Shown here: positions 1 through 12,191 of the stretch, in pieces
How the letters are laid out: each line of letters opens with the position of its first letter
Position numbering within the stretch: position 1 is the stretch's first letter
Origin: Polyangiales bacterium
Lineage (GTDB): Bacteria > Myxococcota_A > Polyangia > Polyangiales > Houyiibacteriaceae
Reading direction: 5' to 3'
NCBI GenBank assembly: GCA_965227405.1
Contig: OZ245758.1
Span: 2,804,338 to 2,868,337, forward strand
Length of the DNA: 64,000 nucleotides
Notes under the pieces: model-generated
Told to the model about the DNA's origin: nothing
Database searches by the model: none
Seen by the model: only the letters and a program-made list of their open reading frames with translations
Position numbers and translations under genes: made by a program

Positions 1-2
1 AC

Positions 3-935
3 TTGAGTCGTGCCGGGCTCGAAGACGCGAAACGACTTTTTGACGCGTTGAAGGGTCACGTTCGACTGACCGGTTTTGACGACTCGGATGTCTGCTCCGA
101 CTTTGATGAACTCTTCATCGGTCAACGCGGTGGCGTGTGGCCTCTGGACGCTCAATCGCGGCTCTTCGCAGATCACGAGCGTGCCCATCCGCTGGTTCGA
201 ATGCTGGACCACATGGGACTCTGGGAACTTGAAGCGGAGTGCGTGGACTTTGATCGGGTCCCCGACGCGCTCTATGCGCTGTGGCGGCTGTACTTCGGCG
301 ACGATGACGCAGCACTCACTCAAGCCCTCGTGCGTTGCGAATCACACGTTGCAGGAATGGTTCGTGACGCAGCAACCTTCATGCATGGTCTGCTCGACGC
401 ACCCGAAGAGTGGGCCGGACAAAACCATCTACGCACGCTGAGAGAACTCGTGCTCGCTGGTGATCCGGTCGCGCTTTCGGAGCCGCCTGATGGGAGTGAA
501 GCGTTAAGTGCGGCGGATCCGACAGACAGCGCCGCGATGACCAAGTTCAAAGCGAAAGTACGCGAGCTGCCAGCCACGGCCGACGCGTGGGACGCGCTTA
601 CGTACGGGTACTTTGCCGAAGAGCGTTGGGAAGAGATGCACGGCTGTGCGGAGGTGTCGATCGCGCTAAGGCCGCAGCACTACTACGCGTGGATGCAACG
701 CGGGATCGCCCGTCACGTGATGGAGCAGTACGACGACGCGCTCGCAGACTTCAACGTCGGTCTTTGTTTCGGCGACCACAACAACCTGCTTCTGAACAAG
801 GCGATCGCATACAAAGATCTCGGTCGACACAAGCAGATGATCGATACGCTTCGCGCGCTTCCACGACACAGTCGTCGCGACACGATTGCAGCTGTCGAGG
901 GTCTCGCCGAGTACGTCGCCGAAGTCGAACGCTAG
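3..935 (+). CDS. Hypothetical protein, 5'-truncated at the window edge; C-terminal region is TPR/helical-repeat-like
   Basis: Open frame running from the window start. No catalytic motif recognised. Convergent with the next gene. Confidence 0.45.
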   Translation: MSRAGLEDAKRLFDALKGHVRLTGFDDSDVCSDFDELFIGQRGGVWPLDAQSRLFADHERAHPLVRMLDHMGLWELEAECVDFDRVPDALYALWRLYFGDDDAALTQALVRCESHVAGMVRDAATFMHGLLDAPEEWAGQNHLRTLRELVLAGDPVALSEPPDGSEALSAADPTDSAAMTKFKAKVRELPATADAWDALTYGYFAEERWEEMHGCAEVSIALRPQHYYAWMQRGIARHVMEQYDDALADFNVGLCFGDHNNLLLNKAIAYKDLGRHKQMIDTLRALPRHSRRDTIAAVEGLAEYVAEVER

Positions 936-1271
936 TTAGGCCAACTGCGCGAGCGCGTTTTCGAACGCTTCGAACCCGTTGCGATGTGTCGCTTCGACAC
1001 GTTCGGTCTTGTCGGCGAGTTCGCGAACCAAGTGGACCGTGGTCGTGTCGTTGTGGGCCTCGACAAAAACCGACCAGGCATGTGCCCCGAGTTGTCGACA
1101 GCCCTCGCGTACGCGTGTGAGCAAGTCTTCGTCGGGAAACATGTGGCGGAAGGTGACAGCGATATTGGCCATTTTCTTTTCTTCGGGCTCTTCGTCGGGG
1201 GCTGGGCTCGAGCGTTTCTTTCGAGACGCCCGAGAACCCGCTTTTCTTCCCGTTGCCCGCGTCGCTGTCAA
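936..1271 (-). CDS. Small hypothetical protein with weak HPF/YfiA-like pattern and a basic/acidic N-terminal extension; real start may be the internal Met (about 1172)
   Basis: Core 'MANIAVTFRHM...NGFEAFENALAQLA' loosely resembles the ribosome hibernation factor fold signature. Similarity is weak. Confidence 0.3.
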   Translation of the reverse strand: MTATRATGRKAGSRASRKKRSSPAPDEEPEEKKMANIAVTFRHMFPDEDLLTRVREGCRQLGAHAWSVFVEAHNDTTTVHLVRELADKTERVEATHRNGFEAFENALAQLA

Positions 1272-1314
1272 AGTTCAGGTGCGCATTTGACTACGCACCT
1301 GAACGATTACCGAA

Positions 1315-1938
1315 TCACTGAACGATGATCTTCGCTTTGAGCGGACCGTTCAGCTTCTTCACGGTCTCTGCAGCCAAGGTCAGGTAGCGGCCCACATCCA
1401 GTTGGAACTCGCCGGCGATCCACGCATCGACGATGAAGTCCATGTTGGGTGCGTCCTTGGGCTCGATGGTGGTCTTGGGGATCGTGTTGATGAGCACGCT
1501 GTTCTCTTTGTGCTCGCCGATCAGAGTTTCGTACACGCCACCCGATCGAATGACCGTGTCCTTGCCTTCGTCCGCGCTGTAACCGGGTTGCGCGAGATCG
1601 GTCAGTTCACCCTTGGACCAGAGCTTGAAAAATCCGCAGCCCATCGCACCGCCAGCATCGCCGTGGCACGAAGGCACGTACCCTGCTGCTCGCACTTCAT
1701 CGACGATCGCGGCGAGACTCTCTTGGTCCAAGGTGCCGCGTGTTGCAGCGATCGCGTACACGCCACCGAGAGTTTTCGGACCGCGCATCTGATCTTTGTG
1801 ATCTGAGAGGCGTCCGTCGACGCATTTGAACAGCCCGTTACTGTTGACGCTCACCACGCCACCAATGTGCGCCGGCTTCACGATCTCGGCTTCCCAACCA
1901 AGACTCTTCAACGCACCAACAATGTCAGTCGCTTGCAT
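1315..1938 (-). CDS. Hypothetical protein (Cys/Gly-rich motifs CVDGR..SCHGDAGGAMGCGF)
   Basis: ORF with good high-GC coding character, same strand as the downstream operon. Start taken at the internal Met 'MQATDIV'. No family recognised. Confidence 0.45.
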   Translation of the reverse strand: MQATDIVGALKSLGWEAEIVKPAHIGGVVSVNSNGLFKCVDGRLSDHKDQMRGPKTLGGVYAIAATRGTLDQESLAAIVDEVRAAGYVPSCHGDAGGAMGCGFFKLWSKGELTDLAQPGYSADEGKDTVIRSGGVYETLIGEHKENSVLINTIPKTTIEPKDAPNMDFIVDAWIAGEFQLDVGRYLTLAAETVKKLNGPLKAKIIVQ

Positions 1939-2019
1939 GTGTTCTCCTCGGGCACGTGCCCGCTCCAAAAGGTGACAGAGGATACCCGATTCGTAGTTCT
2001 ACAATCGAGCCTAAAACCA

Positions 2020-3465
2020 CTAAATCGCGAACGACTTGAGCTGCGGGTCGATTCCGGCAGCTCGTAAGGCTGTGGCGACCTCTGTTTCGATCACGCTGTT
2101 GCGCTCGGTCACACCTTGCGAGGTGATTTGGACCGGCTCTTCGTTCTTTTCCACGATGCAGAACACCCCGCGAACAGCTTTGAGGGAGCGGTGTTTGAGT
2201 GTGGACTGGATGTGACCCGCGACATCGGGAGCCTCGGAGAACATCGGTACCCTCACCGTGAAGATGTCTCGCTCACGGAGCGCACGGCATGCCGGGCGAA
2301 GCTTCCGCATCGCTGGAGAGTCTTTGTAGGCGCGGCGGCGCCAACGGACGGAGCGAAGTTCTAGACCGTCGCTGTTGGGCACTGTTGGGAGACCGTAGTT
2401 TGAGAGCCGGTTGCCGATGAGCTCTGTGACCGTGCGACGGATCGAGTCCAGTTCTTGAGGGTTCCGATTCAACTCCGAGAGCATAATGTGGAGACGAACG
2501 GTTCCATCGAAGTACGTGGGTGTCGTGAGATAACCGCAGTGATACGCGATGGCTTGCACGGTGGGGTCGTCGTGCACTGCGTCCGTCAGGGCCTCGAGTG
2601 CATCATCGTGCATGGCTTCAGGTCCAAACGCGCCTGCATGCAAGAACACAATACCCTCGGAGCGAAGGGACACGAACGCGAGTTCGACGGCACCTGCGTC
2701 GTCACCATCGCCAACACCGATGCCTGAGCTCACGAGGATGCACGACTCGTCGTACCCATCCTCGTGTTCTTCGTCTTCGTCTTCGTCTTCGTCTTCGTCC
2801 TCGTCCTCGTCCTCGTCCTCGTCTTCTTCGAGATCGAGTTCGTCCTCTTCGTCACGATGCAGGTCGTCGTAGTACTCGCCGAAGTACTCAGCGTCATCAT
2901 CGTCGTAGGTGATCTGGTATGGCTCACGCGCAAACCGCAGTCTGATCAGCAGTTGGAGAGGAAACACCTCAAGCATCACGCCATCCACGTGGTCGATCGG
3001 TACTCCGGTGGATTCTGCCCACTGAACGAGTTGGGTCAGCGCAGAAACCAATTCGAGTTTCTCGGGACCGAGTTCGTGATCGACTTCGGGGGCACACTTG
3101 GAAAGCTGTGCGCCGATCTGACGAATGGTCTGCTCCAACGCGTCGACTTGGCGTTGCGCTGCGAGTCTGATGGCTGTGGCGTACGCGACACGAGCCGTGC
3201 TCAGCCAGCTCTCATGAGCGACCTTCTTGACGTACGCATCTGCAGACTTCCCCTGCGCGAGGACGCGTTGCGCTTCGACGTCCAGCCACTCCCATTCACG
3301 AAGTACGGCGGAAGGTTTGACGATCCGAATCCGATCGCCGACAGCCAAACGACGGCCATAGGGTGGTTGAGAGACCACAACACGTTCGCCCGACTCGGTA
3401 AGTCCAACGGCCAAGCCTGTGACGCCGGAGCTTTGGATTGTGACGATGTCACCCGAGTGAGCCAT
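2020..3465 (-). CDS. Hypothetical protein with about 40-residue poly-Asp/Glu tract; last gene of the RavA-like operon
   Basis: Start set at 'MAHSGDIV' (ATG 3463-3465). The upstream part of the ORF overlaps the RavA-like gene. Acidic run 'DEEDELDLEEDEDEDEDEDEDEDEDEDEE' is encoded by a (GTCYTC)n repeat. No VWA MIDAS (DxSxS) motif found. Confidence 0.6.
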   Translation of the reverse strand: MAHSGDIVTIQSSGVTGLAVGLTESGERVVVSQPPYGRRLAVGDRIRIVKPSAVLREWEWLDVEAQRVLAQGKSADAYVKKVAHESWLSTARVAYATAIRLAAQRQVDALEQTIRQIGAQLSKCAPEVDHELGPEKLELVSALTQLVQWAESTGVPIDHVDGVMLEVFPLQLLIRLRFAREPYQITYDDDDAEYFGEYYDDLHRDEEDELDLEEDEDEDEDEDEDEDEDEDEEHEDGYDESCILVSSGIGVGDGDDAGAVELAFVSLRSEGIVFLHAGAFGPEAMHDDALEALTDAVHDDPTVQAIAYHCGYLTTPTYFDGTVRLHIMLSELNRNPQELDSIRRTVTELIGNRLSNYGLPTVPNSDGLELRSVRWRRRAYKDSPAMRKLRPACRALRERDIFTVRVPMFSEAPDVAGHIQSTLKHRSLKAVRGVFCIVEKNEEPVQITSQGVTERNSVIETEVATALRAAGIDPQLKSFAI

Positions 3466-3526
3466 AGCCCCGACATACGCCGGGCGTCGGAGATCGCTCC
3501 CGAGTGCGCAGCAGCTGTAACCGTGC

Positions 3527-4696
3527 CTACTGAGCGAACTTGCCGCTTTGGAACACGTGTCCAAGCAGCTGCTCCACACGGCCGATCGCTTCACGCGCGG
3601 GCTGCGTACCAATCGCCTGAAGCGCAGCTTTGATCTCGTTGAGCGCCTTCAGATGGCTGAAGAGCTGGATGTCGCTCATCGGTCGATCGCTGGTGAGCAG
3701 ATCGCGAATCCGGTTGATCTCTTCGATCAATGCATCGAGGCCGACATCGGCAGCACCAAAGCGACGGGACTCCGGATGCTCTCGGTACCAAGCCTCGAGC
3801 ACAGGTCCCACGACGCCTTCCAAGATCTCGGCTTGGTCGAGGTTGTTCCAGATGTGACGAAGGATGAAGAAGTCGCTCGGGTCCGCAGTGGCACGTCCGT
3901 CCAACATCGCCGATGCCGAGAAAAGCTTGAGCATCTTGATCGCACGGCGGTCGGAAAGACTTACACCTTCGCTTCGGATCTGAAACACCAGACCCTTGTA
4001 CGCCGCCAGGAACTCTTCGCTGAACTTCATGCGCGGCGCGAAGTTCGCGTGCACACCGTGCAGCTCTTGGCTGGTCAACACAGGCTGCATGCGGTCGTAC
4101 TGGCCGGTGATCTTGCTGACCTCGTGGTTGATGCCTTTGAGCAGCAAGTCGTGGAAGTGGTAGCTGTCGAGGTTCTCGCTGCGCACCCGCAGCAGGAAAC
4201 GGTCGAACACCGCCATCAAGTCTTCGTCGTTGGGAACCTCGTTGCTGGCACCAAACGCGCTGATCAGCGGCACTTTGATCACAGCACCACCCACCGTGTA
4301 GAGGCGCTCGTTGAGCACGCTCAGCAGCGAGTTCAGGATGGCCGAGTTCGCCTTGAACACCTCGTCGAGAAACACGATCTCAGACTCTGGCAACATTCCA
4401 GAGGTACGACGCTTATACTCACCACCTCGGAATGCGGTGATGTCGATCGGACCAAAGATCTCGTTCGGTTCGGTGAAGCGCGTGAGCAGGTACTCGAAGT
4501 ACTTCGCTTGAACGAGCTTGGAGAAGAGTCGAACCAACGCGGATTTCGCCGTTCCGGGCGGTCCGATCAAGACCATGTGCTCGCCTGCCAAAGCAGCGAT
4601 GAGCATCAGGCGAATGGTCTCGGTCTTGCCGAGGAACGTGCCCTCGAGCGAACGAGCGACCTGTTGAAGCTTGCGAGCGATGTGTACGTCGGTCAT
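3527..4696 (-). CDS. MoxR-class AAA+ ATPase, RavA-like
   Basis: Walker A 'LIGPPGTAKS' and Walker B 'EIVFLDEVFKA'. 'NSLLSVLNERLY' and 'AFGASNE' closely track the E. coli RavA AAA+ core ('LLGPPGIAKS...[25 protein letters not shown]'). ATG at 4694-4696. Confidence 0.85.
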   Translation of the reverse strand: MTDVHIARKLQQVARSLEGTFLGKTETIRLMLIAALAGEHMVLIGPPGTAKSALVRLFSKLVQAKYFEYLLTRFTEPNEIFGPIDITAFRGGEYKRRTSGMLPESEIVFLDEVFKANSAILNSLLSVLNERLYTVGGAVIKVPLISAFGASNEVPNDEDLMAVFDRFLLRVRSENLDSYHFHDLLLKGINHEVSKITGQYDRMQPVLTSQELHGVHANFAPRMKFSEEFLAAYKGLVFQIRSEGVSLSDRRAIKMLKLFSASAMLDGRATADPSDFFILRHIWNNLDQAEILEGVVGPVLEAWYREHPESRRFGAADVGLDALIEEINRIRDLLTSDRPMSDIQLFSHLKALNEIKAALQAIGTQPAREAIGRVEQLLGHVFQSGKFAQ

Positions 4697-4708
4697 CGGA
4701 AGTTCCGT

Positions 4709-5845
4709 TTACGCGCCGAGCGCGGAGGATACCGGCAGAGGGCGCGCACGATCGAGGATGGATCGCGCAAATTCGACGGCGTCGTCGCCGGCTTGTTGAC
4801 GACGCAGTTCGGCGCGTCGTTGGACACGCTCCAAATCACTGGCAGAGAGCGCGATCACGTCGGAGAGCGGCGTGTCGTGCTGCACCACGGCGGGCAAAAC
4901 CGCAGCAAAGAGTTCTTCGTCGCCAACCGCGGGTTCGGCGATCGGGACGTGGCCTGCGCGCTCATCAAGCACTTCAAGAACCTGCAACTCCGCGAGGAAG
5001 GCTAACGCGACGTGCAGGTATTCGCCTGGTGCACCCACCGCGCTAAGTTCCCGCAACGCGTGTCCCAGTGGCTGCGCGACCTTGTTGGTGCCTGTCTTGA
5101 TCAGCGCTTGAACGACGCCGTTGCGCAATCCCGAATCGGAGAGCACTGCAAGCGCGGCCATGCCGAATACGAATCGTGGGTAGAGCTGCAAGTTGAGCAG
5201 CTGGGTAACCGGCGAGCGCGCGATCAGTTGGGTGAGCAAACCCGTGAGTGATTCTTCGTCGACGCCCTCTTCGAGGATCTCGAGCATCCGTCGCCGCGAC
5301 TTCTGTTCTTTAACGAAGCGCAAGCGCGGCATGGCTGTGACGTTTGCAGGCGGCGGCCGACCGTAGAAGCGGTAGGTGTACGCCCAGTTCTTCACCACCG
5401 TGTCTTCGCGTTGGAAGAGAAGTGCGCGTTCCGCGATCACGTGTCGCGAGAGTGCTTCGCCGCGAGTGCGGGGCGGCGGGATCGCGTCGATGATCGCTTC
5501 GATCCACTCACGCATCGTCTTGAGCGACCCACGCGAAAACGTGCGGTCCAACATCGGGTCGGTAATCGCGCCGAGGTTGTGGAGCGCCATCGCCATACCC
5601 ATGGCGCCGAAGTCGTTGGCAGGGAGCCCTTGAAGTGGAGCGATCTCGCTCGCTGCACGAAGCATGTGCGACTGCAGATCAAACTCGACCTCGGTGTCGC
5701 TGATCGTGCCGTAGGCAAACGTTTCCATTACGCCGGGGGGTAAGGGGCGCACCGCGTGGGCTTCTCCGCCCGCGAACAAGGGCAGGAGAAACTCCTTGAT
5801 GAATTCCTCGTAGAGCTCGCCGATCTTCGTGCTCTCGTCGGCCAC
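4709..5845 (-). CDS. Hypothetical protein (378 aa), second gene of the RavA-like operon
   Basis: GTG start at 5843-5845, immediately after the TAG of the upstream gene (5846-5848). No motif recognised. Confidence 0.55.
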   Translation of the reverse strand: MADESTKIGELYEEFIKEFLLPLFAGGEAHAVRPLPPGVMETFAYGTISDTEVEFDLQSHMLRAASEIAPLQGLPANDFGAMGMAMALHNLGAITDPMLDRTFSRGSLKTMREWIEAIIDAIPPPRTRGEALSRHVIAERALLFQREDTVVKNWAYTYRFYGRPPPANVTAMPRLRFVKEQKSRRRMLEILEEGVDEESLTGLLTQLIARSPVTQLLNLQLYPRFVFGMAALAVLSDSGLRNGVVQALIKTGTNKVAQPLGHALRELSAVGAPGEYLHVALAFLAELQVLEVLDERAGHVPIAEPAVGDEELFAAVLPAVVQHDTPLSDVIALSASDLERVQRRAELRRQQAGDDAVEFARSILDRARPLPVSSALGA

Positions 5846-7366
5846 CTAGGCTTCTTCTTCCGTCGGCTTGGCTTTCTTTCCGGGAATGCCCCAGAGCGGG
5901 AAACGACGCGGTTTGTCGTATCGGAACAAGGGCAGCGGAGCTTCGTCTTCGATCGGGCGTTCGGCACCGATCGGAATCGCCGCGATGTCGCGAAGCACGC
6001 GTCGCGACACAGGACCAAATGCAGTCGAGGCAACGACGCGTGGTTCGGCTTGCTCCGCATCGAAGAACACAAACCCGTCGCCGCGATCGCGAACCAAATC
6101 CTGCAACACTGCCGGACTTACCGCCGGCACGAGCGTGAGCCCCGCGGGAACGTAGATGCGCGACGCCACCTCGGAATAGAACACACCCAGAGGCACACCT
6201 TCGATGCCGCTGGGATCGATCAGGTAAAAGCGATCTTCGCCGATAGCGATACGCAACGCGCTCAATGTCTTGGGAGGCAACGCGTAGAGCAGTCGCGACA
6301 ACCACTCGCGCTGCTGCAGCGGCACCACGGTTGCGGTGATCATGCGCCACGCGTCGGTGCTCATGGCGAGGCGCAGCGGAAGCGACATGCCCAGTTTCTG
6401 TGCGCTTCCACCACCGGCTTGCGTCCGCGCCGAGACATCTTCTTCCAGGTCGACGTTGGTGCGAACGAGCGAACGAACCGGTGCAAAGGGCGGTAGCGGA
6501 TTGACGACGAGAACCTCGCCGTCGCCACGAAACAGGTGCAGCGTGTCGTCGTCGAACAGCGACTGACAACTTTCGAGAGCGATGGGGTGGCGATAGCCGT
6601 GTTCCACCGCGAACGACTTTCCGAGCGGCTCAAACACGTGAACGCCCGGCAGCGACGAGAACAAACGAGCGACGCGTTCGGGCGTCTCGCTGATGTCGAA
6701 CACGTAGAGGCGCACTGGACGATCGTCGAACGCGCTTTGTGCCGGCCACTCGGCAAGTGCAGCGCGTGCGGGGATCTGCCAGCGAAAGAGGTACGAGAGA
6801 ATGGCTCCGCCGACGCCGACTTCGCTGGTCGCCCAGAGTCGTTGAGGCGTGGGTTCGTCGGTCCCGACGGCAGAGGGAATGCGATAGGGAGTGAGCTTGA
6901 AGACGAGATCGCGAAACGAGATCTCGCGGTCGAAGCTGTACGCTTGACGGAAACTGTCGTGGTAGAGCACCAGGTCCGCCGGTTGGTCCAAGAGCTCCTG
7001 GACGTCGTAACCCAGCGGAGAACCGGTATCGCGGTACTTCACGAAGTGGCGCGACGTCCCCGTGAACACCAACCCACCAGCGAGCTTGGCCACCCCGGCG
7101 ATGCGATCCATCCGGTAGGACGACTCGGCCGTCAGCGAGAGCATGATCTCGCGACTCTTCAGCGGCGTGATCAGACGGCGGATGACCAACGAGGGGAGCA
7201 ACTCATCGAGGGAACCCTCGTCGCCATAGGCGCGAAGAAACGCGACAAGACGATCGATGCTCGGGAAGAGCACGACACCCTTTTGCCCAAGAACCACACC
7301 TCGCGCGTCCGGGGTAACACCGGGCGTGCGGAAGCGGGTTTGGTGGAGCGCGGCCCGTTCGAGCAC
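5846..7366 (-). CDS. Hypothetical protein (506 aa), first gene of the RavA-like operon; possible weak VWA-like 'LYVFDISET' strand
   Basis: Long ORF with a coupled stop/start to the next gene. No confident family assignment. Confidence 0.55.
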   Translation of the reverse strand: MLERAALHQTRFRTPGVTPDARGVVLGQKGVVLFPSIDRLVAFLRAYGDEGSLDELLPSLVIRRLITPLKSREIMLSLTAESSYRMDRIAGVAKLAGGLVFTGTSRHFVKYRDTGSPLGYDVQELLDQPADLVLYHDSFRQAYSFDREISFRDLVFKLTPYRIPSAVGTDEPTPQRLWATSEVGVGGAILSYLFRWQIPARAALAEWPAQSAFDDRPVRLYVFDISETPERVARLFSSLPGVHVFEPLGKSFAVEHGYRHPIALESCQSLFDDDTLHLFRGDGEVLVVNPLPPFAPVRSLVRTNVDLEEDVSARTQAGGGSAQKLGMSLPLRLAMSTDAWRMITATVVPLQQREWLSRLLYALPPKTLSALRIAIGEDRFYLIDPSGIEGVPLGVFYSEVASRIYVPAGLTLVPAVSPAVLQDLVRDRGDGFVFFDAEQAEPRVVASTAFGPVSRRVLRDIAAIPIGAERPIEDEAPLPLFRYDKPRRFPLWGIPGKKAKPTEEEA

Positions 7367-7421
7367 GCTCGGAACCTAAACCATTTTGGCGCTAAGGCTC
7401 CAGTTGTGTTTGCATGCGTTT

Positions 7422-7772
7422 ATGCGCTGGTTCTTCGCGCTGCTCATGCTTTGTGGCTCGGTGGTCAGCGCCCAGCCGCCTTCCCTGGAAGCACGCCTAG
7501 CAACGCTGAGGCAGGCGCCTGAGGCGTCCCACGCGCGAGAGCCGATTCAGCAAGCCCGTCGCGCTCTGGAGCGCGAACGAGAGCTCCGCGAGGCCGGCCA
7601 GACCGCGGCGGCTCAACGTGCGCGACGGATTGCCGATGCGGCGGTGATCTTGAGTGAGCGGATTGTCGCGCGTGTTCGAGCGCAGGCTTCGCTCCGCGTT
7701 GCACAAACGGAACGCGATGAGGCGGTTCGACGAAAGGAAGTCGCTGAGGCTGCACTGGAGCGTGCCCAGTGA
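7422..7772 (+). CDS. Secreted coiled-coil protein (signal peptide, cleavage after VSA)
   Basis: 'MRWFFALLMLCGSVVSAQPP' signal peptide followed by Ala/Arg/Glu/Gln-rich coiled-coil. Its stop overlaps the next ATG. Confidence 0.5.
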   Translation: MRWFFALLMLCGSVVSAQPPSLEARLATLRQAPEASHAREPIQQARRALERERELREAGQTAAAQRARRIADAAVILSERIVARVRAQASLRVAQTERDEAVRRKEVAEAALERAQ

Positions 7773-8740
7773 GGTGGCTGGCCTTGGTCGTTGTCGCGGC
7801 GTGCGGCGGTGCGAGTGTTCAGACCGATCCCTCCACGCTTTTCGATCCCGAAGGCTTGGAAGCGGCGCGGCGAGAGGCACCAGACTTAGTGGCTCAAGCT
7901 GAGCGCGCGGCGAACGAGGCACGAGCTGCGGAAGCTGACGGTGACACCGAAGCCGCACAAGACCACGCGACCCGTGCGCGCCTGCTCTACCAAGCCGCAG
8001 TTGTGGAGTCCGAGCGTGCAGCGATCGATCGCGAACGACTTGAAGCTTCGCAGACGGCAGAAGAAGCCACACAGGCTGCAGTACGTGCCGACGAGCAACG
8101 CGCCGCGATCGAGATCCAAGCACAGCGCGCGAATGCTGCGGAGGTTGCGCGTGCACAAATGCAGCGCGCGTTTGCACAAGCCGAAGAAGACGAGGGTCGT
8201 CGACTGAGGCGTCGTAGTGCCGAAGTGGATCGTGCCCGAACCGAAGCCGCTGCTGCACTTCGTGAACGCACGCGGTTGGTTCTTTCGGCAGCCCGTGCAC
8301 TAGGTGCAAACGCTGAAGCGATCGATGCGGTGAACATTCCAACGGGCGGCACACCCATCGAGCAGATTCAGCGCGCCAATACAGCGCACGCTCAAGCTCT
8401 TGAAGTGCTCGGTGCCGCCCGCACGGCGCACCCCGTGGACGAAGCATCCCGGGAGTCCTTGCTGGCGGCGGTTCGAGAGCGCAGCCTGCAAGCACGTCTG
8501 GAACCGCGCGGCATCGTGATCGACGGTGTCACCACAGCGCGAGGTAGCGTATTGGCCCAACTCGTGGCCGCCCATCCGCATGGTCCGGTCGAAGTTCGGG
8601 GCCGCGGAGCCGCACGCTTGGCAGGCACTCTTCGCCGTGGTGGAGCAGGCGATCGCGTGCAGACGCATGCTGCGCAAAGCGACCTCGAAGTCGTGTTCGT
8701 GGGCTACGGGAATACCGATGCGCCCGCGCGCGTACCCTAG
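7769..8740 (+). CDS. Coiled-coil lipoprotein
   Basis: Lipobox 'VVVAAC|GG'. Ala/Glu/Arg-rich coiled-coil body. ATGA overlap with the upstream gene. Confidence 0.55.
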   Translation: MRWLALVVVAACGGASVQTDPSTLFDPEGLEAARREAPDLVAQAERAANEARAAEADGDTEAAQDHATRARLLYQAAVVESERAAIDRERLEASQTAEEATQAAVRADEQRAAIEIQAQRANAAEVARAQMQRAFAQAEEDEGRRLRRRSAEVDRARTEAAAALRERTRLVLSAARALGANAEAIDAVNIPTGGTPIEQIQRANTAHAQALEVLGAARTAHPVDEASRESLLAAVRERSLQARLEPRGIVIDGVTTARGSVLAQLVAAHPHGPVEVRGRGAARLAGTLRRGGAGDRVQTHAAQSDLEVVFVGYGNTDAPARVP

Positions 8741-8742
8741 AT

Positions 8743-9345
8743 GTGTACTTAGCGCTCGTCCTGGTCGCCGCGATCACGATTGGCGTTGTCGTCGCATTCG
8801 TGCACGGCAACTCGCGACTGGGTCGATGGGGTACACGGCGCGGCAAGCCCGTCGACGTGGGCGCGTCTCCTTATCGTGAAGGCACAAGCAGTCCGGTACT
8901 CGCCAATGGTGCACCGACAGGGCTGCGCTTTGTGGCGGGTCTCAACACGTTCTGGGGCGTCATCACCGGACTGATTTTTGTTCCAGCGGGTGCCGTTCTC
9001 GTGTTGTTCGGAGCGCCTCAGCTCAAGATCATCTCGTTTCCCGTCGGCTTCGTCGTGCTTAGTGGACTCGGTCTCGCATTCTCTCTGGGCATTGCTTCGG
9101 CACGTGTGCTTCGCCGCGAACAACTGCCGCAGGTTCGGAAGGTGTTGACCTGGTCGATGTGTCATCACGTGGCCGTTCTTGCTGTGATGGGTCTCGCGTC
9201 GTTGATGATCAACGAAGCGTTTCTGATCGCGGCGTCGGCCATTCCGTGTGTGCTCGGAATGACCTTCGCGCATCTACTGATCCAAGGCGTCAACCAGATC
9301 GAATACGGTCTCTATTCGCCCAGTACGGCTGACGGCTACTCGTAG
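8743..9345 (+). CDS. Hypothetical integral membrane protein
   Basis: Several hydrophobic helices ('LALVLVAAITIGVVVAF', 'FWGVITGLIFVPAGAVLVLF' ...). Confidence 0.5.
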   Translation: MYLALVLVAAITIGVVVAFVHGNSRLGRWGTRRGKPVDVGASPYREGTSSPVLANGAPTGLRFVAGLNTFWGVITGLIFVPAGAVLVLFGAPQLKIISFPVGFVVLSGLGLAFSLGIASARVLRREQLPQVRKVLTWSMCHHVAVLAVMGLASLMINEAFLIAASAIPCVLGMTFAHLLIQGVNQIEYGLYSPSTADGYS

Positions 9346-12191
9346 ACCATGTGCGTCTCCGAACGCTTCGTTCGGAAGTTCGCATCCATGTAGTCCATCA
9401 AGTCGAGCATGAACGTTTCCATCTGCGCGCCGTCGGGCGTGCCTTCTGGAGCGTTCGTGTAGAACGTTCCCTTCACGCACTCGTCGCCGCGGCAACGACC
9501 GTCGGGGAACACGAAGATCATCTTCTGGAAACGCTGCGCTTCCGGGATGGTCCGTGCGGTCATGAAGTTCCAAATCACGATGCCGGTGGCCACCAGGTCG
9601 GTCGGATCCTGACCGTAGCCGTGAAGCAGGTACACGACCGGGTATTCGACGTCCTGATACTCCTCGTCGAAGTAGCCGGGCGGCAGCACGATCGCGGCGG
9701 GACCGGTGCGACCTGTCGTCGGTGAGGTGAAGTCGATCGTGAACTGGTTCATGTTCTCGCAACCGGGGCTGACCTCGGGACAGATCCGGTCCACCACGCG
9801 GCGTCGGTCACCACCGGGCCAACGCTGGCTCATCCACGCCATCACGCTGATGATGCGGTTGAGCACCTGGTTGGGTGTTCCGACGTGCTGTCCGTCACCC
9901 TGTGCGAGCGCACCTTCGCTCGCATCGACATTGCCGTAGCGGATGTGGACGTACTTGCCGGTCTCGCGCCAGTCGACGTTGTTGAAGCGAAGATCTTCGT
10001 CCAGGAAGAGTCCGTCGTAGGTCAACGCTGCGTGCGAGTTGTAGAGCGTGAGCGGAAGACCGCGCGCCGAGAACGCACCCGCGAGGTGGTTCTGGTTCGC
10101 CGCGAAGTTGAATAGGTCGCGGATGCCTCCGTCGCTGAAGAAGTCCAAGTCGCGAAGCGTGTTTTCATCGGCGGTCAGAACAAAGCTGCGCGGGTTGTTC
10201 GCCAGCATATGCGCAACGCCGCGTGCCTGGGTCCAGCAGTCGTCGCCTTCACCGTTGTCGAAACCGCCTTCGTCGAGCTGTGCGGTGCCGGGCACGGCGT
10301 CCATTCCGTCGTCGAAGAAGATCTCGCCTTCACCGGCAATCGGGCTTGCAATCGGGCTGTCGCAGCCCGCGACGGGAGCGCCCACGTAGTCGCGAAGCCA
10401 GTTGTTTTCCGTGCCGTTGGGGTTGAACTGGAAGTCGTAGTCGTCTTCGTTCGGATCGGGGTTGGTGATCGGGTCGTAGCCAGGCTCGTCGACGTTGCAG
10501 AGCTGGTCGATTCCGCAGTCGAGGAAGTTCTCCCGGCCCTGACGCACAATCGGTTCACCTGGGTCGCGGATGCCGTTGTCGTTGTAGTCCACGGCGACGG
10601 CCACCTCGATGGGGTCGGGCTGCGGTTGCACCGTCGGATCCCAGATGCCGTGATCGCGCTCGCCATCGACGACGATCTCAGCGCCGTCGCAGAACGTGAT
10701 GACCGGATGCTGACCGGTCATGTTGTACTCCTCGTCGAAGAAACCGGTTCCGTCTTCGCAGCCACCGCTTCCATCCGGCTCACACGCGGGGATCACCACC
10801 GGGTTGGCGCAGCGGTCTTCGTTGGTCCGTTCGCGATCGCTATCGGGAATGCCGGGCGGCAACACGTTGGCGCCTGTTGGATCCAGTGTCGCCGTGGTGT
10901 TGGGATTGCCGTACATGCGAGCGAGGTCGCGGAAGAGTCGCAGGTACTCGTCACGGTCGAAGGTGCCGCCGTGTCCGTTCCACTCGTCTTCGTAGCGCCA
11001 GTGCTCGAAGTCCTGTGCAACCTCGTAGCGCGGATCGTCGACCGGCGGAGTGCGCGCGGTGTCAGCGGGTCCCGCACAGCCTTCCGGATCGTCGATGCGT
11101 TCTTGCTCGGTGCAGAAGCCGCCGATGTGCCAGGTGCGGATGTAGTTCAACAGGTGAATCCAATCGACCGGACCACCCAGCGGACCGAGGAAGTCGAAAC
11201 GGTCCGGGTTGTTCATGCCGATGAGCGCGGCGCCTCCAGAACCCATCGAAACGCCGGTGATGCCGCGGAAGCTGAACGTGCGCTCGCGCAGTTGAGGCCC
11301 GTTTTCACGGGCGATCGGCTGATAGGTGCCGAGTCGTGAGGTGTAGAACGTGACGTACCCCGGGTTGGACTCAAAGTCCGGGCTCGCAACGGGGATCGCG
11401 CGAGGTTCGGTCACTCCGGGACCGCTGTAGGCGAACTCCACGTTTCCGCGCCGGGCGTTTTCGGGCAGCAGCGCGAGCTTGACCGGAACCGTAAACGGGA
11501 TCTCTCGATTCAGGCGCGTGTGACTCGGCCCAAACGTAATCGCAGGTCCGAGGGCCGTGTACCCCTCGGGGATCTGATCCTCGGCGCAATCGATGGTCAC
11601 GTCGAAGGGATCCACGCGGAACTGGTCATCGCGCGATGCGCCTTCCGGAATCTCGATGCCCGTCAGGTCGTCGTCGAGTCGAAGCTCGCCGCCAGGACCG
11701 ACGTTGCCCGACGCGTCGCCCGTGCACGTGGGAAGCGTCGTGTCTTGAACGCGAACATCAAGCGTCGACGTGAAGGTCATCTCGTCTTCGGTACCCGGCA
11801 GGTCGGTGTACGTGGCCGTGATCGTGGTCTCACCTTCGGCCAGTGCGGTGAAAATGATCTCCGAGCGCGAGGTGCGAGCGGGAATCGTGATCGTGTCGAC
11901 GAAGTCCACGATGCCATCGGTGCTGGCACTCAGCGTGATCGTCAGGTCTTCGCAGAAGTCACGTGCGACCGAGAGACGTGCGTCGCGCATGATGCCGTTG
12001 ACCATGTCGAGTCGCTCGACGCCCCACACCAGCTCGGGCGGGTTGCAGAACGCTTCGCGCTCGGCGTCGATGTCCATGACATCTTCCATCCCGGCATCGG
12101 GCAGCGGTCCGGTGTCCGGCGTATCGCCGTCGTCGTCACCACAAGCAATCAGTAAAGCGAGAGAAAGGGCGCAGAAGCCTGAAATGCGCAT
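9336..12191 (-). CDS. Large secreted lipoprotein with alpha/beta-hydrolase (esterase-family) motifs
   Basis: Lipobox 'LLIAC|GDDDG'. The central region has an 'ITGVSMGSGGAAL' GxSxG nucleophile-elbow motif. The C-terminal region has 'LPPGYFDEE..YPVVYLLHGYGQD', an esterase (PF00756-like) N-terminal signature. Pro/Asp/Gly-rich linkers. Confidence 0.7.
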   Translation of the reverse strand: MRISGFCALSLALLIACGDDDGDTPDTGPLPDAGMEDVMDIDAEREAFCNPPELVWGVERLDMVNGIMRDARLSVARDFCEDLTITLSASTDGIVDFVDTITIPARTSRSEIIFTALAEGETTITATYTDLPGTEDEMTFTSTLDVRVQDTTLPTCTGDASGNVGPGGELRLDDDLTGIEIPEGASRDDQFRVDPFDVTIDCAEDQIPEGYTALGPAITFGPSHTRLNREIPFTVPVKLALLPENARRGNVEFAYSGPGVTEPRAIPVASPDFESNPGYVTFYTSRLGTYQPIARENGPQLRERTFSFRGITGVSMGSGGAALIGMNNPDRFDFLGPLGGPVDWIHLLNYIRTWHIGGFCTEQERIDDPEGCAGPADTARTPPVDDPRYEVAQDFEHWRYEDEWNGHGGTFDRDEYLRLFRDLARMYGNPNTTATLDPTGANVLPPGIPDSDRERTNEDRCANPVVIPACEPDGSGGCEDGTGFFDEEYNMTGQHPVITFCDGAEIVVDGERDHGIWDPTVQPQPDPIEVAVAVDYNDNGIRDPGEPIVRQGRENFLDCGIDQLCNVDEPGYDPITNPDPNEDDYDFQFNPNGTENNWLRDYVGAPVAGCDSPIASPIAGEGEIFFDDGMDAVPGTAQLDEGGFDNGEGDDCWTQARGVAHMLANNPRSFVLTADENTLRDLDFFSDGGIRDLFNFAANQNHLAGAFSARGLPLTLYNSHAALTYDGLFLDEDLRFNNVDWRETGKYVHIRYGNVDASEGALAQGDGQHVGTPNQVLNRIISVMAWMSQRWPGGDRRRVVDRICPEVSPGCENMNQFTIDFTSPTTGRTGPAAIVLPPGYFDEEYQDVEYPVVYLLHGYGQDPTDLVATGIVIWNFMTARTIPEAQRFQKMIFVFPDGRCRGDECVKGTFYTNAPEGTPDGAQMETFMLDLMDYMDANFRTKRSETHMVYE

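Follow-up and report, generated by a model that had tools for sequence, protein, structure and literature searches.

A conserved MoxR-VWA gene module, probably split by inserted genes, in a Polyangiales genome

With which proteins does a MoxR-class AAA+ ATPase work when no VWA-domain protein is encoded beside it? The question is raised by a locus in a 64-kb stretch of DNA (the window) from a Polyangiales bacterium (GenBank assembly GCA_965227405.1, contig OZ245758.1, positions 2,804,338 to 2,868,337). A first-pass annotation of this window had described a four-gene operon that contained a RavA/MoxR-class ATPase, three unrecognizable partners, and no ViaA-type VWA protein, and it had proposed that the last partner, rich in Asp and Glu, was a polyanionic adaptor. 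RavA-ViaA, NorQ-NorD, and CbbQ-CbbO are pairs of a MoxR ATPase and a VWA protein that work as chaperone and co-chaperone. MoxR-VWA pairs are widespread, yet to our knowledge the client has been identified for only a few of them. The four minus-strand genes of the window are designated here, in operon order, g1, g2, g3 (the MoxR ATPase), and g4:

5846-7366, minus strand: g1, 506 amino acids (aa), GTG start; gene 1 of the module, an alpha+beta protein related to bpX2/fvmX7.
4709-5845, minus strand: g2, 378 aa, GTG start; gene 2 of the module, mostly alpha-helical with a three-strand sheet.
3527-4696, minus strand: g3, 389 aa, ATG start; AAA+ ATPase of the MoxR class (bpMoxR family), whose P-loop reads GPPGTAKS.
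2020-3465, minus strand: g4, 481 aa, its ATG being codon 50 of a 530-aa open reading frame (ORF) that begins with TTG; a strain-restricted orphan and the first gene of an inserted block.

The explanation that we consider probable is that g1, g2, and g3 belong to a conserved g1-g2-MoxR-VWA-HEAT module, which is split in this genome by inserted cargo that includes g4. The anatomical and evolutionary part of this explanation is very likely correct. The four genes are co-directional, as annotated, and the ORF list agrees with their coordinates. The g1 stop codon TAG (5846-5848) abuts the g2 GTG (5843-5845; sequence gcc TAG GTG gcc), the gap from the g2 TAA to the g3 ATG is 12 nucleotides (nt), and the gap from the g3 stop to the g4 ATG is 61 nt. 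A promoter and terminator scan of positions 900 to 7800 gave counts not above those of shuffled sequence, and tRNA and Rfam scans of the window gave no matches. The four genes do not form one functional unit, however, in that only g1, g2, and g3 are kept together and g4 is strain-restricted. Conservation of the gene order, which the first-pass annotation had left to be checked, extends far outside this strain for g1-g2-MoxR and fails for g4. The idea of an uncharacterized MoxR-dependent module survived, as g1 and g2 match no well-characterized family.

The conservation of the module was assessed in related genomes. One genome per species was scanned with a g1 alignment, and 59 species-level loci (numbered with the prefix L) were obtained. 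Contiguity and VWA statistics were taken from tblastn tables; crude gene calls based on GC content at third codon positions (GC3) served for family counting only, and they missed g4 because a long TTG-start ORF overlaps MoxR. At least 429 homologs of g1 and 73 homologs of g2 were found, and all those with a named source came from Myxococcota/"Deltaproteobacteria" metagenome-assembled genomes (Sandaracinaceae/Polyangiales) or from Sandaracinus amylolyticus. g1, g2, and MoxR occurred together in 55 loci, with g1 and g2 contiguous in 52/55 and g2 and MoxR contiguous in 53/55. Across 52 loci, MoxR identity was 61 to 93%; g2, at 27 to 60% identity across loci, evolves faster than the other components. 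Among the loci in which MoxR was matched (52), a VWA gene began no more than 600 nt past the MoxR stop in 31, and 29 of these 31 also had a HEAT gene. The VWA gene was displaced 2.4 to 5.5 kb further downstream on the same strand in 5/52 loci, 8/52 had no VWA gene in a downstream sequence of 5 kb or longer, and in another 8/52 the downstream sequence was too short for a decision. The operon of S. amylolyticus runs on into a 492-aa ivWA-matching protein and then a 600-aa HEAT-repeat protein. The conserved order across loci, with VWA and HEAT following MoxR, therefore defines the ancestral unit as g1, g2, MoxR, VWA, and HEAT.

In the VWA orthologs, the VWA domain is C-terminal and follows a long N-terminal region, and the only Pfam families that these proteins match are ivWA and VWA_2. 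All 19 of 19 orthologs match ivWA (PF19997; best E value, 1.5e-6), with the match beginning at about residue 224 to 275 of about 500; the two copies with listed scores reach 18.8 and 25.4 bits, under the cutoff of 35. They share the motif HYICVDASASMRGQR, and in their metal ion-dependent adhesion site (MIDAS), DASAS, D281 is invariant and S285 is conserved in at least 90%. The profile of the HEAT protein (∼600 aa) shows HEAT repeats only, at residues 430 to 585. A decayed FtsH-type ATPase was considered for this protein and rejected, since the profile matches HEAT repeats and not AAA+.

Next, the VWA gene of the source genome was sought. The window, which holds only 3.5 kb downstream of MoxR, contains no homolog of VWA or of HEAT in any frame by tblastn or by family hidden Markov models (HMMs; hmmsearch --max, six frames). 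Locus L064, found via its CDCA-like protein, is 99.2% identical to window positions 1 to 2821 and extends past the left edge. Its gene order is the end of g4, the CDCA homolog, the 78-aa gene, three opposite-strand genes encoding a TPR protein (479 aa) and proteins of 798 and 117 aa, and then, on the operon strand, a 501-aa VWA protein that matches the VWA family HMM with an E value of 1e-279 and carries HYIMVDASASMRGQR. A 9.07-Mb NCBI contig encodes exactly the g1, g2, MoxR, CDCA, and 78-aa proteins of the window. The same contig also encodes a VWA protein, P0213 (501 aa, in the same 90% cluster, with DASAS), together with the 798-aa protein, an identical 117-aa protein, and the 479-aa TPR protein. 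The leftmost ORF of the window is identical to residues 170 to 479 of TPR protein P0224 at 309/310 positions, the sole mismatch being the first codon, a TTG read as Met. The gene order of L064 and the presence of the same proteins on the 9.07-Mb contig indicate that the source genome encodes its VWA protein on the far side of six inserted genes, some 6.9 kb past the MoxR stop and some 3.4 kb outside the window. The reported lack of a ViaA-type VWA protein is thus correct for the window and incorrect for the genome, in which the gene has been displaced by insertion to a place past the edge; in relatives, it stands right after MoxR. Between two strains, the VWA gene shows 43 synonymous differences and 1 nonsynonymous difference, and it is under strong purifying selection.

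The inserted cargo in the lineage of the window consists of g4, the CDCA homolog, the 78-aa gene, and the three opposite-strand genes. Besides g4 itself, the following features of the block lie in the window:

3466-3528, no strand: synteny breakpoint and start of the inserted block, directly after the MoxR stop; the alignment with L001 ends at window position 3528.
2768-2826, minus strand: hexamer tandem repeat of 9.8 copies (Tandem Repeats Finder), encoding the 21-residue Asp/Glu run of g4.
1315-1938, minus strand: CDCA homolog of 207 aa in the inserted block; PF18484 (zeta-class carbonic anhydrase, CDCA repeat), 8e-61.
936-1172, minus strand: 78-aa protein of unknown function in the inserted block, also present in L064 and L065.
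3-935, plus strand: 3' part of the TPR protein gene (residues 170 to 479 of 479) in the inserted block, convergent and crossing the left edge.

L001, a 92%-identical strain, is syntenic with the window only as far as the MoxR stop, and unrelated genes (Pro_CA and others) follow. A glycoside hydrolase gene is inserted between MoxR and VWA in L004, and a hybrid histidine kinase gene is inserted there in L009 and L011. The MoxR-VWA junction in this clade is interrupted by different genes in different lineages. No HEAT ortholog follows the VWA gene in L064, and none was found in the available sequence of L004, L009, L011, L012, and L061.

Two further observations concern these inserts. The gene right after MoxR in L001 encodes a beta-class carbonic anhydrase (PF00484), as opposed to the zeta-class homolog that follows g4 in the window. 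The 798-aa protein (L064:3326-5722, beyond the left edge) has no Pfam match on record; by eye, GHSRGG and other strings suggest an alpha/beta-hydrolase-like domain after apparent Ig-like repeats.

The ATPase itself was then assigned to a branch of the MoxR class. g3 matches Pfam PF20030 (bpMoxR) with 250.7 bits (cutoff, 27; E value, 9e-75), and further matches are to AAA_5 (1.3e-26) and AAA_lid_8 (1.7e-10). The motifs by which a RavA-like AAA+ core had been recognized (GPPGTAKS, IVFLDEVFKA, and NSLLSVLNERLY) are all present. GPPGTAKS is a P-loop of the GxxxTAKS form, the Walker B motif VFLDEVF is intact, and both align with their RavA equivalents. Residues 6 to 300 align with the AAA+ module of E. 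coli RavA (PDB structures; E value, 4e-47), and the Walker A and B motifs, the sensor motifs, and the Arg finger region of RavA are kept in the alignment. Against the RavA equivalog model (NCBIfam NF010054), g3 scores 189 bits versus a cutoff of 681 and covers model positions 6 to 298 of 498. Because the match ends at residue 300, the C-terminal region of RavA, including the LARA domain, is unmatched; the score and the end of the match ruled out a RavA ortholog. These matches place g3 in the bpMoxR branch, on the FtsH/beta-propeller side of the MoxR-vWA ternary systems. Four kinds of such ternary systems have been described (Kaur, Burroughs, Iyer and Aravind, eLife 2020; PMC7159879). In the FtsH and beta-propeller types, MoxR often has the unusual GxxxTAKS P-loop and the VWA domains are highly divergent (PMC7159879).

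To what do the two partners g1 and g2 correspond? The annotated lack of a clear DxSxS MIDAS in g1, g2, and g4 was borne out: the only D-x-[ST]-x-[ST] strings are DISET in g1 (position 224) and DRTFS in g2 (position 100), and their Ser/Thr residues are not conserved. A cryptic VWA fold had been suspected in g1 near LYVFDISET. The Ser/Thr residues of this string are unconserved in the family, hhalign against the VWA family gave 0.09%, and the AlphaFold model of g1 (34-sequence alignment; predicted local distance difference test [pLDDT], 73) shows a succession of ferredoxin-like beta-alpha-beta-beta units. As modeled, g1 is a chain of ferredoxin-like domains and not a hidden VWA protein. Among 34 g1 orthologs, 12 match bpX2 and 8 match fvmX7 (best, 2.8e-9), both domains of unknown function; g1 of the window matches fvmX7 weakly (20.9 bits; cutoff, 24), and the two g1 matches with listed positions lie in the C-terminal half. 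Three g1 segments are near-invariant (residues 2 to 23, 106 to 121, and 478 to 495) and are predicted to be disordered (low pLDDT); two of the three contain an invariant Asp.

The g2 model (pLDDT, 91; predicted template modeling score, 0.89) is mostly helical with a three-strand sheet and does not show the Rossmann-like fold of a VWA domain. g2 has no sequence relative in Pfam, NCBIfam, PADLOC, or the PDB, and its confident model matches no solved structure. A single ortholog of 36 matched fvmX1 (8e-4).

The module was compared with the known MoxR-VWA systems. It resembles the FtsH ternary systems (simple type) in its MoxR with the GxxxTAKS P-loop, in accompanying helical proteins found nowhere else, and in its occurrence in social deltaproteobacteria/Myxococcota; further likely resemblances are a putative divergent VWA domain, matching ivWA, at the C-terminal end of an ∼500-aa protein with a long N-terminal region and an accompanying alpha+beta protein that is probably related to fvmX7. 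In contrast to those systems, no FtsH-type double AAA+ protein is encoded within ±10 kb in 65 loci and the window. The classical P-loop G[PAS]PGxGK[ST] was found in none of the ORFs of at least 150 aa over the same range and loci, and of the neighbor families that are widely shared, only MoxR is an ATPase. The module also differs in having no NEFF1, radical-SAM, or peptide effector and no ubiquitin-like (Ubl) conjugation genes, its fifth component is a HEAT/TPR-like 600-aa protein, and the ivWA scores of the two listed VWA copies and the fvmX7 score of the window g1 are sub-threshold, as given above.

With the MoxR-vWA-beta-propeller systems, the module shares a bpMoxR ATPase, bpX2 matches in g1 orthologs, the lack of a conventional effector, and additional linked genes whose alpha-helical and alpha+beta domains are unique. 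The VWA protein here, however, lacks a C-terminal beta-propeller, so the definition of those systems does not apply, and their third component (variable N terminus, membrane segment, TPR, and beta-propeller) was not found in the conserved neighborhoods. RavA-ViaA of E. coli provides the closest solved AAA+ relative, an AKS-type P-loop (GPPGIAKS in RavA), and the same pairing of ATPase and VWA protein. Unlike RavA (498 aa), g3 has 389 aa and its match ends at residue 300; unlike ViaA, the partner VWA is of the ivWA type; g1 and g2 precede the ATPase; and no VWA gene adjoins MoxR in the window, that of the genome lying some 6.9 kb away. The likeness to NorQ-NorD and CbbQ-CbbO is one of assumed principle, in which the force comes from an ATP-driven MoxR hexamer and the VWA MIDAS holds the client by an acidic residue. 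Unlike those pairs, the module has no linked metalloenzyme or Rubisco client, homology is limited to the AAA+ and VWA folds, and the proposed clients (g1 and g2) are themselves of unknown function. The module is best described as a new variant in the FtsH/beta-propeller branch, without an FtsH-type ATPase and without a beta-propeller. The supplement text of Kaur et al. makes no mention of Sandaracinus, fvmX7, or ivWA, and no experimental study of this branch turned up in searches of the literature.

The mechanism outlined here for the module is tentative. MIDAS sites of integrin and CbbO-type VWA domains bind acidic side chains. The MoxR hexamer and the MIDAS-bearing VWA protein would be paired as chaperone and co-chaperone, after the pattern of RavA-ViaA, NorQ-NorD, and CbbQ-CbbO, and in this pair the VWA MIDAS would grip an acidic residue on an extended client peptide. 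The client or co-complex would be g1 and g2, both cytoplasmic, together with the HEAT protein in genomes that have it; g1, g2, and HEAT make up all the remaining conserved genes and are therefore the most economical choice of client. The disordered invariant peptides of g1 (the N terminus, residues 106 to 121, and the C terminus) would be the likeliest handles for the VWA MIDAS and/or the AAA+ ring, and ATP-driven remodeling would switch the g1-g2 complex between assembly states.

Several points weigh against the explanation of the locus as a conserved five-gene module split by cargo, or against the mechanism built on it. We infer both the physical association of g1, g2, MoxR, and VWA and, from the 99.2%-identical L064 and protein co-occurrence, where the VWA gene lies on the source contig. 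In relatives, the VWA protein was assigned from sub-threshold Pfam matches and a MIDAS-like motif, and the VWA family profile found no relative in the PDB. Eight loci have 5 kb or more of sequence downstream of MoxR and no VWA gene there, so the module may in some cases do without a VWA gene next to it. g4 may be co-transcribed with MoxR, because it is co-directional and only 61 nt downstream. Finally, the homologous Pfam families derive from predicted conflict systems, which argues against a housekeeping role.

With regard to that last point, we favor, with reservations, a machine for assembly or regulation that is constitutive and lineage-specific over a defense system that diversifies, because of the uniform architecture, the lack of an effector domain, the lack of a PADLOC match (none for g1, g2, and MoxR in PADLOC-DB v2 at an E value of ≤0.1), and the extreme purifying selection. 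In its full form, this would be a previously undescribed, lineage-wide cytoplasmic machine outside conflict, with MoxR-VWA acting on a g1-g2 client by way of the g1 handles, with the unsolved fold of g2, and with a possible link, hinted at by frequent neighbors, to the envelope or type IV pilus (PilY1); we give this full form well under even chances.

The PilY1 element of this proposal refers to a gene outside the module. In 10 loci (L014, L021, L023, L026, L029, L030, L051, L055, L057, and L058), a convergent gene for an ∼1,110-aa PilY1-like protein lies directly downstream of the HEAT gene (e.g., L026:17237-21507). The PilY1-like protein, found in 10 or more loci of Sandaracinaceae, begins with a VWA domain (VMLLVDTSGSM) at its N terminus, and next to its gene there are usually one or two small ones, for an ∼185-aa lipoprotein-like protein and an ∼120-aa protein. 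It may be a functional neighbor or may reflect mere conserved gene order.

The alternative that survives best is that the module is an anti-invader conflict system of the kind described by Kaur et al., in which a MoxR-VWA thresholding switch would free or activate an effector on infection (g1, g2, or the HEAT protein's N-terminal part) and so keep the invader from spreading in a social myxobacterium. Like the machine outside conflict, this reading is doubtful as a specific proposal. It keeps substantial weight because every recognizable family comes from predicted conflict systems (bpMoxR for the ATPase, ivWA for the VWA protein of relatives, and fvmX7 and bpX2 for g1). Those systems are predicted to act in conflict and are enriched in multicellular bacteria, including deltaproteobacteria (PMC7159879), g2 is the faster-evolving component, as in the identities given above, and variable cargo builds up at the MoxR-VWA junction as it does in defense islands. 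Against it, no component contains a peptidase, nuclease, TIR, effector-associated domain, or other effector module, and the PADLOC searches gave no match. The architecture is uniform in 31 loci, without the shuffling of effectors that typifies such systems, there are zero nonsynonymous changes in g1-g3 between strains, and the defining FtsH or beta-propeller components are absent.

Under either reading, the module is conserved across a myxobacterial family and has two dedicated, uncharacterized partners, one with a fold that matches no solved structure, and the effectors that define the related predicted conflict systems are all missing from this variant. Its presence in S. amylolyticus, if that organism is genetically tractable, offers a defined four- or five-protein set with which to ask what a bpMoxR-type ATPase remodels.

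Far less probable is the proposal that came with the first-pass annotation, of a self-contained four-gene operon in which the polyacidic g4 replaces VWA as the adaptor of MoxR or acts as a MIDAS decoy. In its favor, g4 is co-directional, starts 61 nt after MoxR in the slot that VWA holds in relatives, and is separated from MoxR by a gap with no terminator-like site, and its acidic tract could in principle engage a MIDAS. This tract was described as about 40 uninterrupted Asp/Glu residues, and it is shorter than that: the longest pure Asp/Glu run is 21 residues (213 to 233; window positions 2767-2829), and the richest 40-residue window contains 32 Asp/Glu. It forms part of a linker (about residues 187 to 240) between an N-terminal domain (about 1 to 175) and a C-terminal domain (241 to 481) that has no homolog. 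Two short-read contigs from the same sample break in or close to the hexamer repeat that encodes the run, with L002 ending at window position 2795 and L064 starting at 2821.

g4 is probably a real gene because its composition is of the coding type (GC at codon positions 1/2/3, 0.69/0.41/0.67) and its N-terminal 175 residues have relatives (best E value, 3e-17). A full HMMER scan of 1.84 billion representative proteins gave five matches, all to residues 5 to 173. Three of these N-domain relatives, of ∼325 aa, have a different C-terminal part, and the one genomic context checked contains twin-arginine translocation (Tat) and protease genes with no MoxR adjacent. The C-terminal 241 residues had no relative in the representative-protein scan, the PDB, plasmids, or phages, and g4 as a whole matched nothing in Pfam, NCBIfam, PDB sequences, plasmids, or phages. 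PADLOC gave only a marginal HTH_IX match (0.0058). A word-index search found no homologs, the acidic tract having probably swamped it, and the exact g4 protein was missing from the protein collection under ten start choices. A degenerate VWA domain in g4 was tried as a candidate and rejected (hhalign probability, <1%; tblastn and six-frame hmmsearch --max also negative).

The distribution and evolution of g4 weigh heavily against a role as adaptor. It is absent from all 59 related-species loci and from the 92%-identical L001, whose g1-g3 proteins are 99 to 100% identical to those of the window, and it occurs only in the 97-99% identical strain (L002 and L064). Compared with that strain, g4 has 10 nonsynonymous and 5 synonymous differences, versus 0 and 50 for g1, g2, and MoxR combined (Fisher P = 1.7e-8), and the ratio of nonsynonymous to synonymous divergence per site (pN/pS) is about 0.5 to 0.7 in the two halves compared. 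The cognate VWA protein, moreover, is still encoded and under strong purifying selection. Thus, g4 is fast-evolving, strain-specific cargo and not a conserved partner. For genome scanning, the locus illustrates that a window edge and lineage-specific insertions can together produce a "missing partner" and that a striking low-complexity gene beside a conserved operon can be unrelated cargo.

Least probable of all, by a slight further step, is that g1-g2-MoxR is a decaying, nonfunctional remnant of the five-gene module with VWA displaced and HEAT lost: the lack of a HEAT ortholog in the available sequence of L004, L009, L011, L012, L061, and L064, the split MoxR of L008, and the 4-kb g2-MoxR insert of L010 favor it, but g1, g2, and MoxR are intact, their nonsynonymous and synonymous differences number 0 versus 50 (97% strain) and 5 versus 129 (92% strain), those of the VWA gene number 1 versus 43, and all catalytic motifs of MoxR are intact. 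The split in L008 (L008:12909-13523) leaves MoxR as two short ORFs, a sign of erosion in a close relative, and the insert in L010 (L010:12649-16595) carries opposite-strand genes encoding proteins of 162 and 1,127 aa.

Upstream, three plus-strand genes diverge from g1 (7386-7772, 128 aa; 7769-8740, 323 aa; and 8743-9345, 200 aa), of which the second is listed here as context only:

7769-8740, plus strand: Ala/Glu/Arg-rich lipoprotein-like gene, divergent from g1.

None of the three proteins has a significant Pfam match. The 128-aa protein has a signal-peptide-like N terminus, and the 200-aa protein has hydrophobic, membrane-like segments. The 323-aa lipoprotein-like protein is 38% identical (tblastn; E value, 4e-27) to a 377-aa protein encoded by the neighboring gene in S. 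amylolyticus, and some 20 loci have a member of its family upstream of g1, in many cases accompanied by a TerB-like gene. Beyond these genes, on the minus strand (9336-12191), lies a gene whose 951-aa product is lipoprotein-like and ends in an esterase domain (PF00756; 3.9e-9); its synonymous divergence from the 97% strain (pS, 0.21) is above that of the MoxR module (pS, 0.04 to 0.09).

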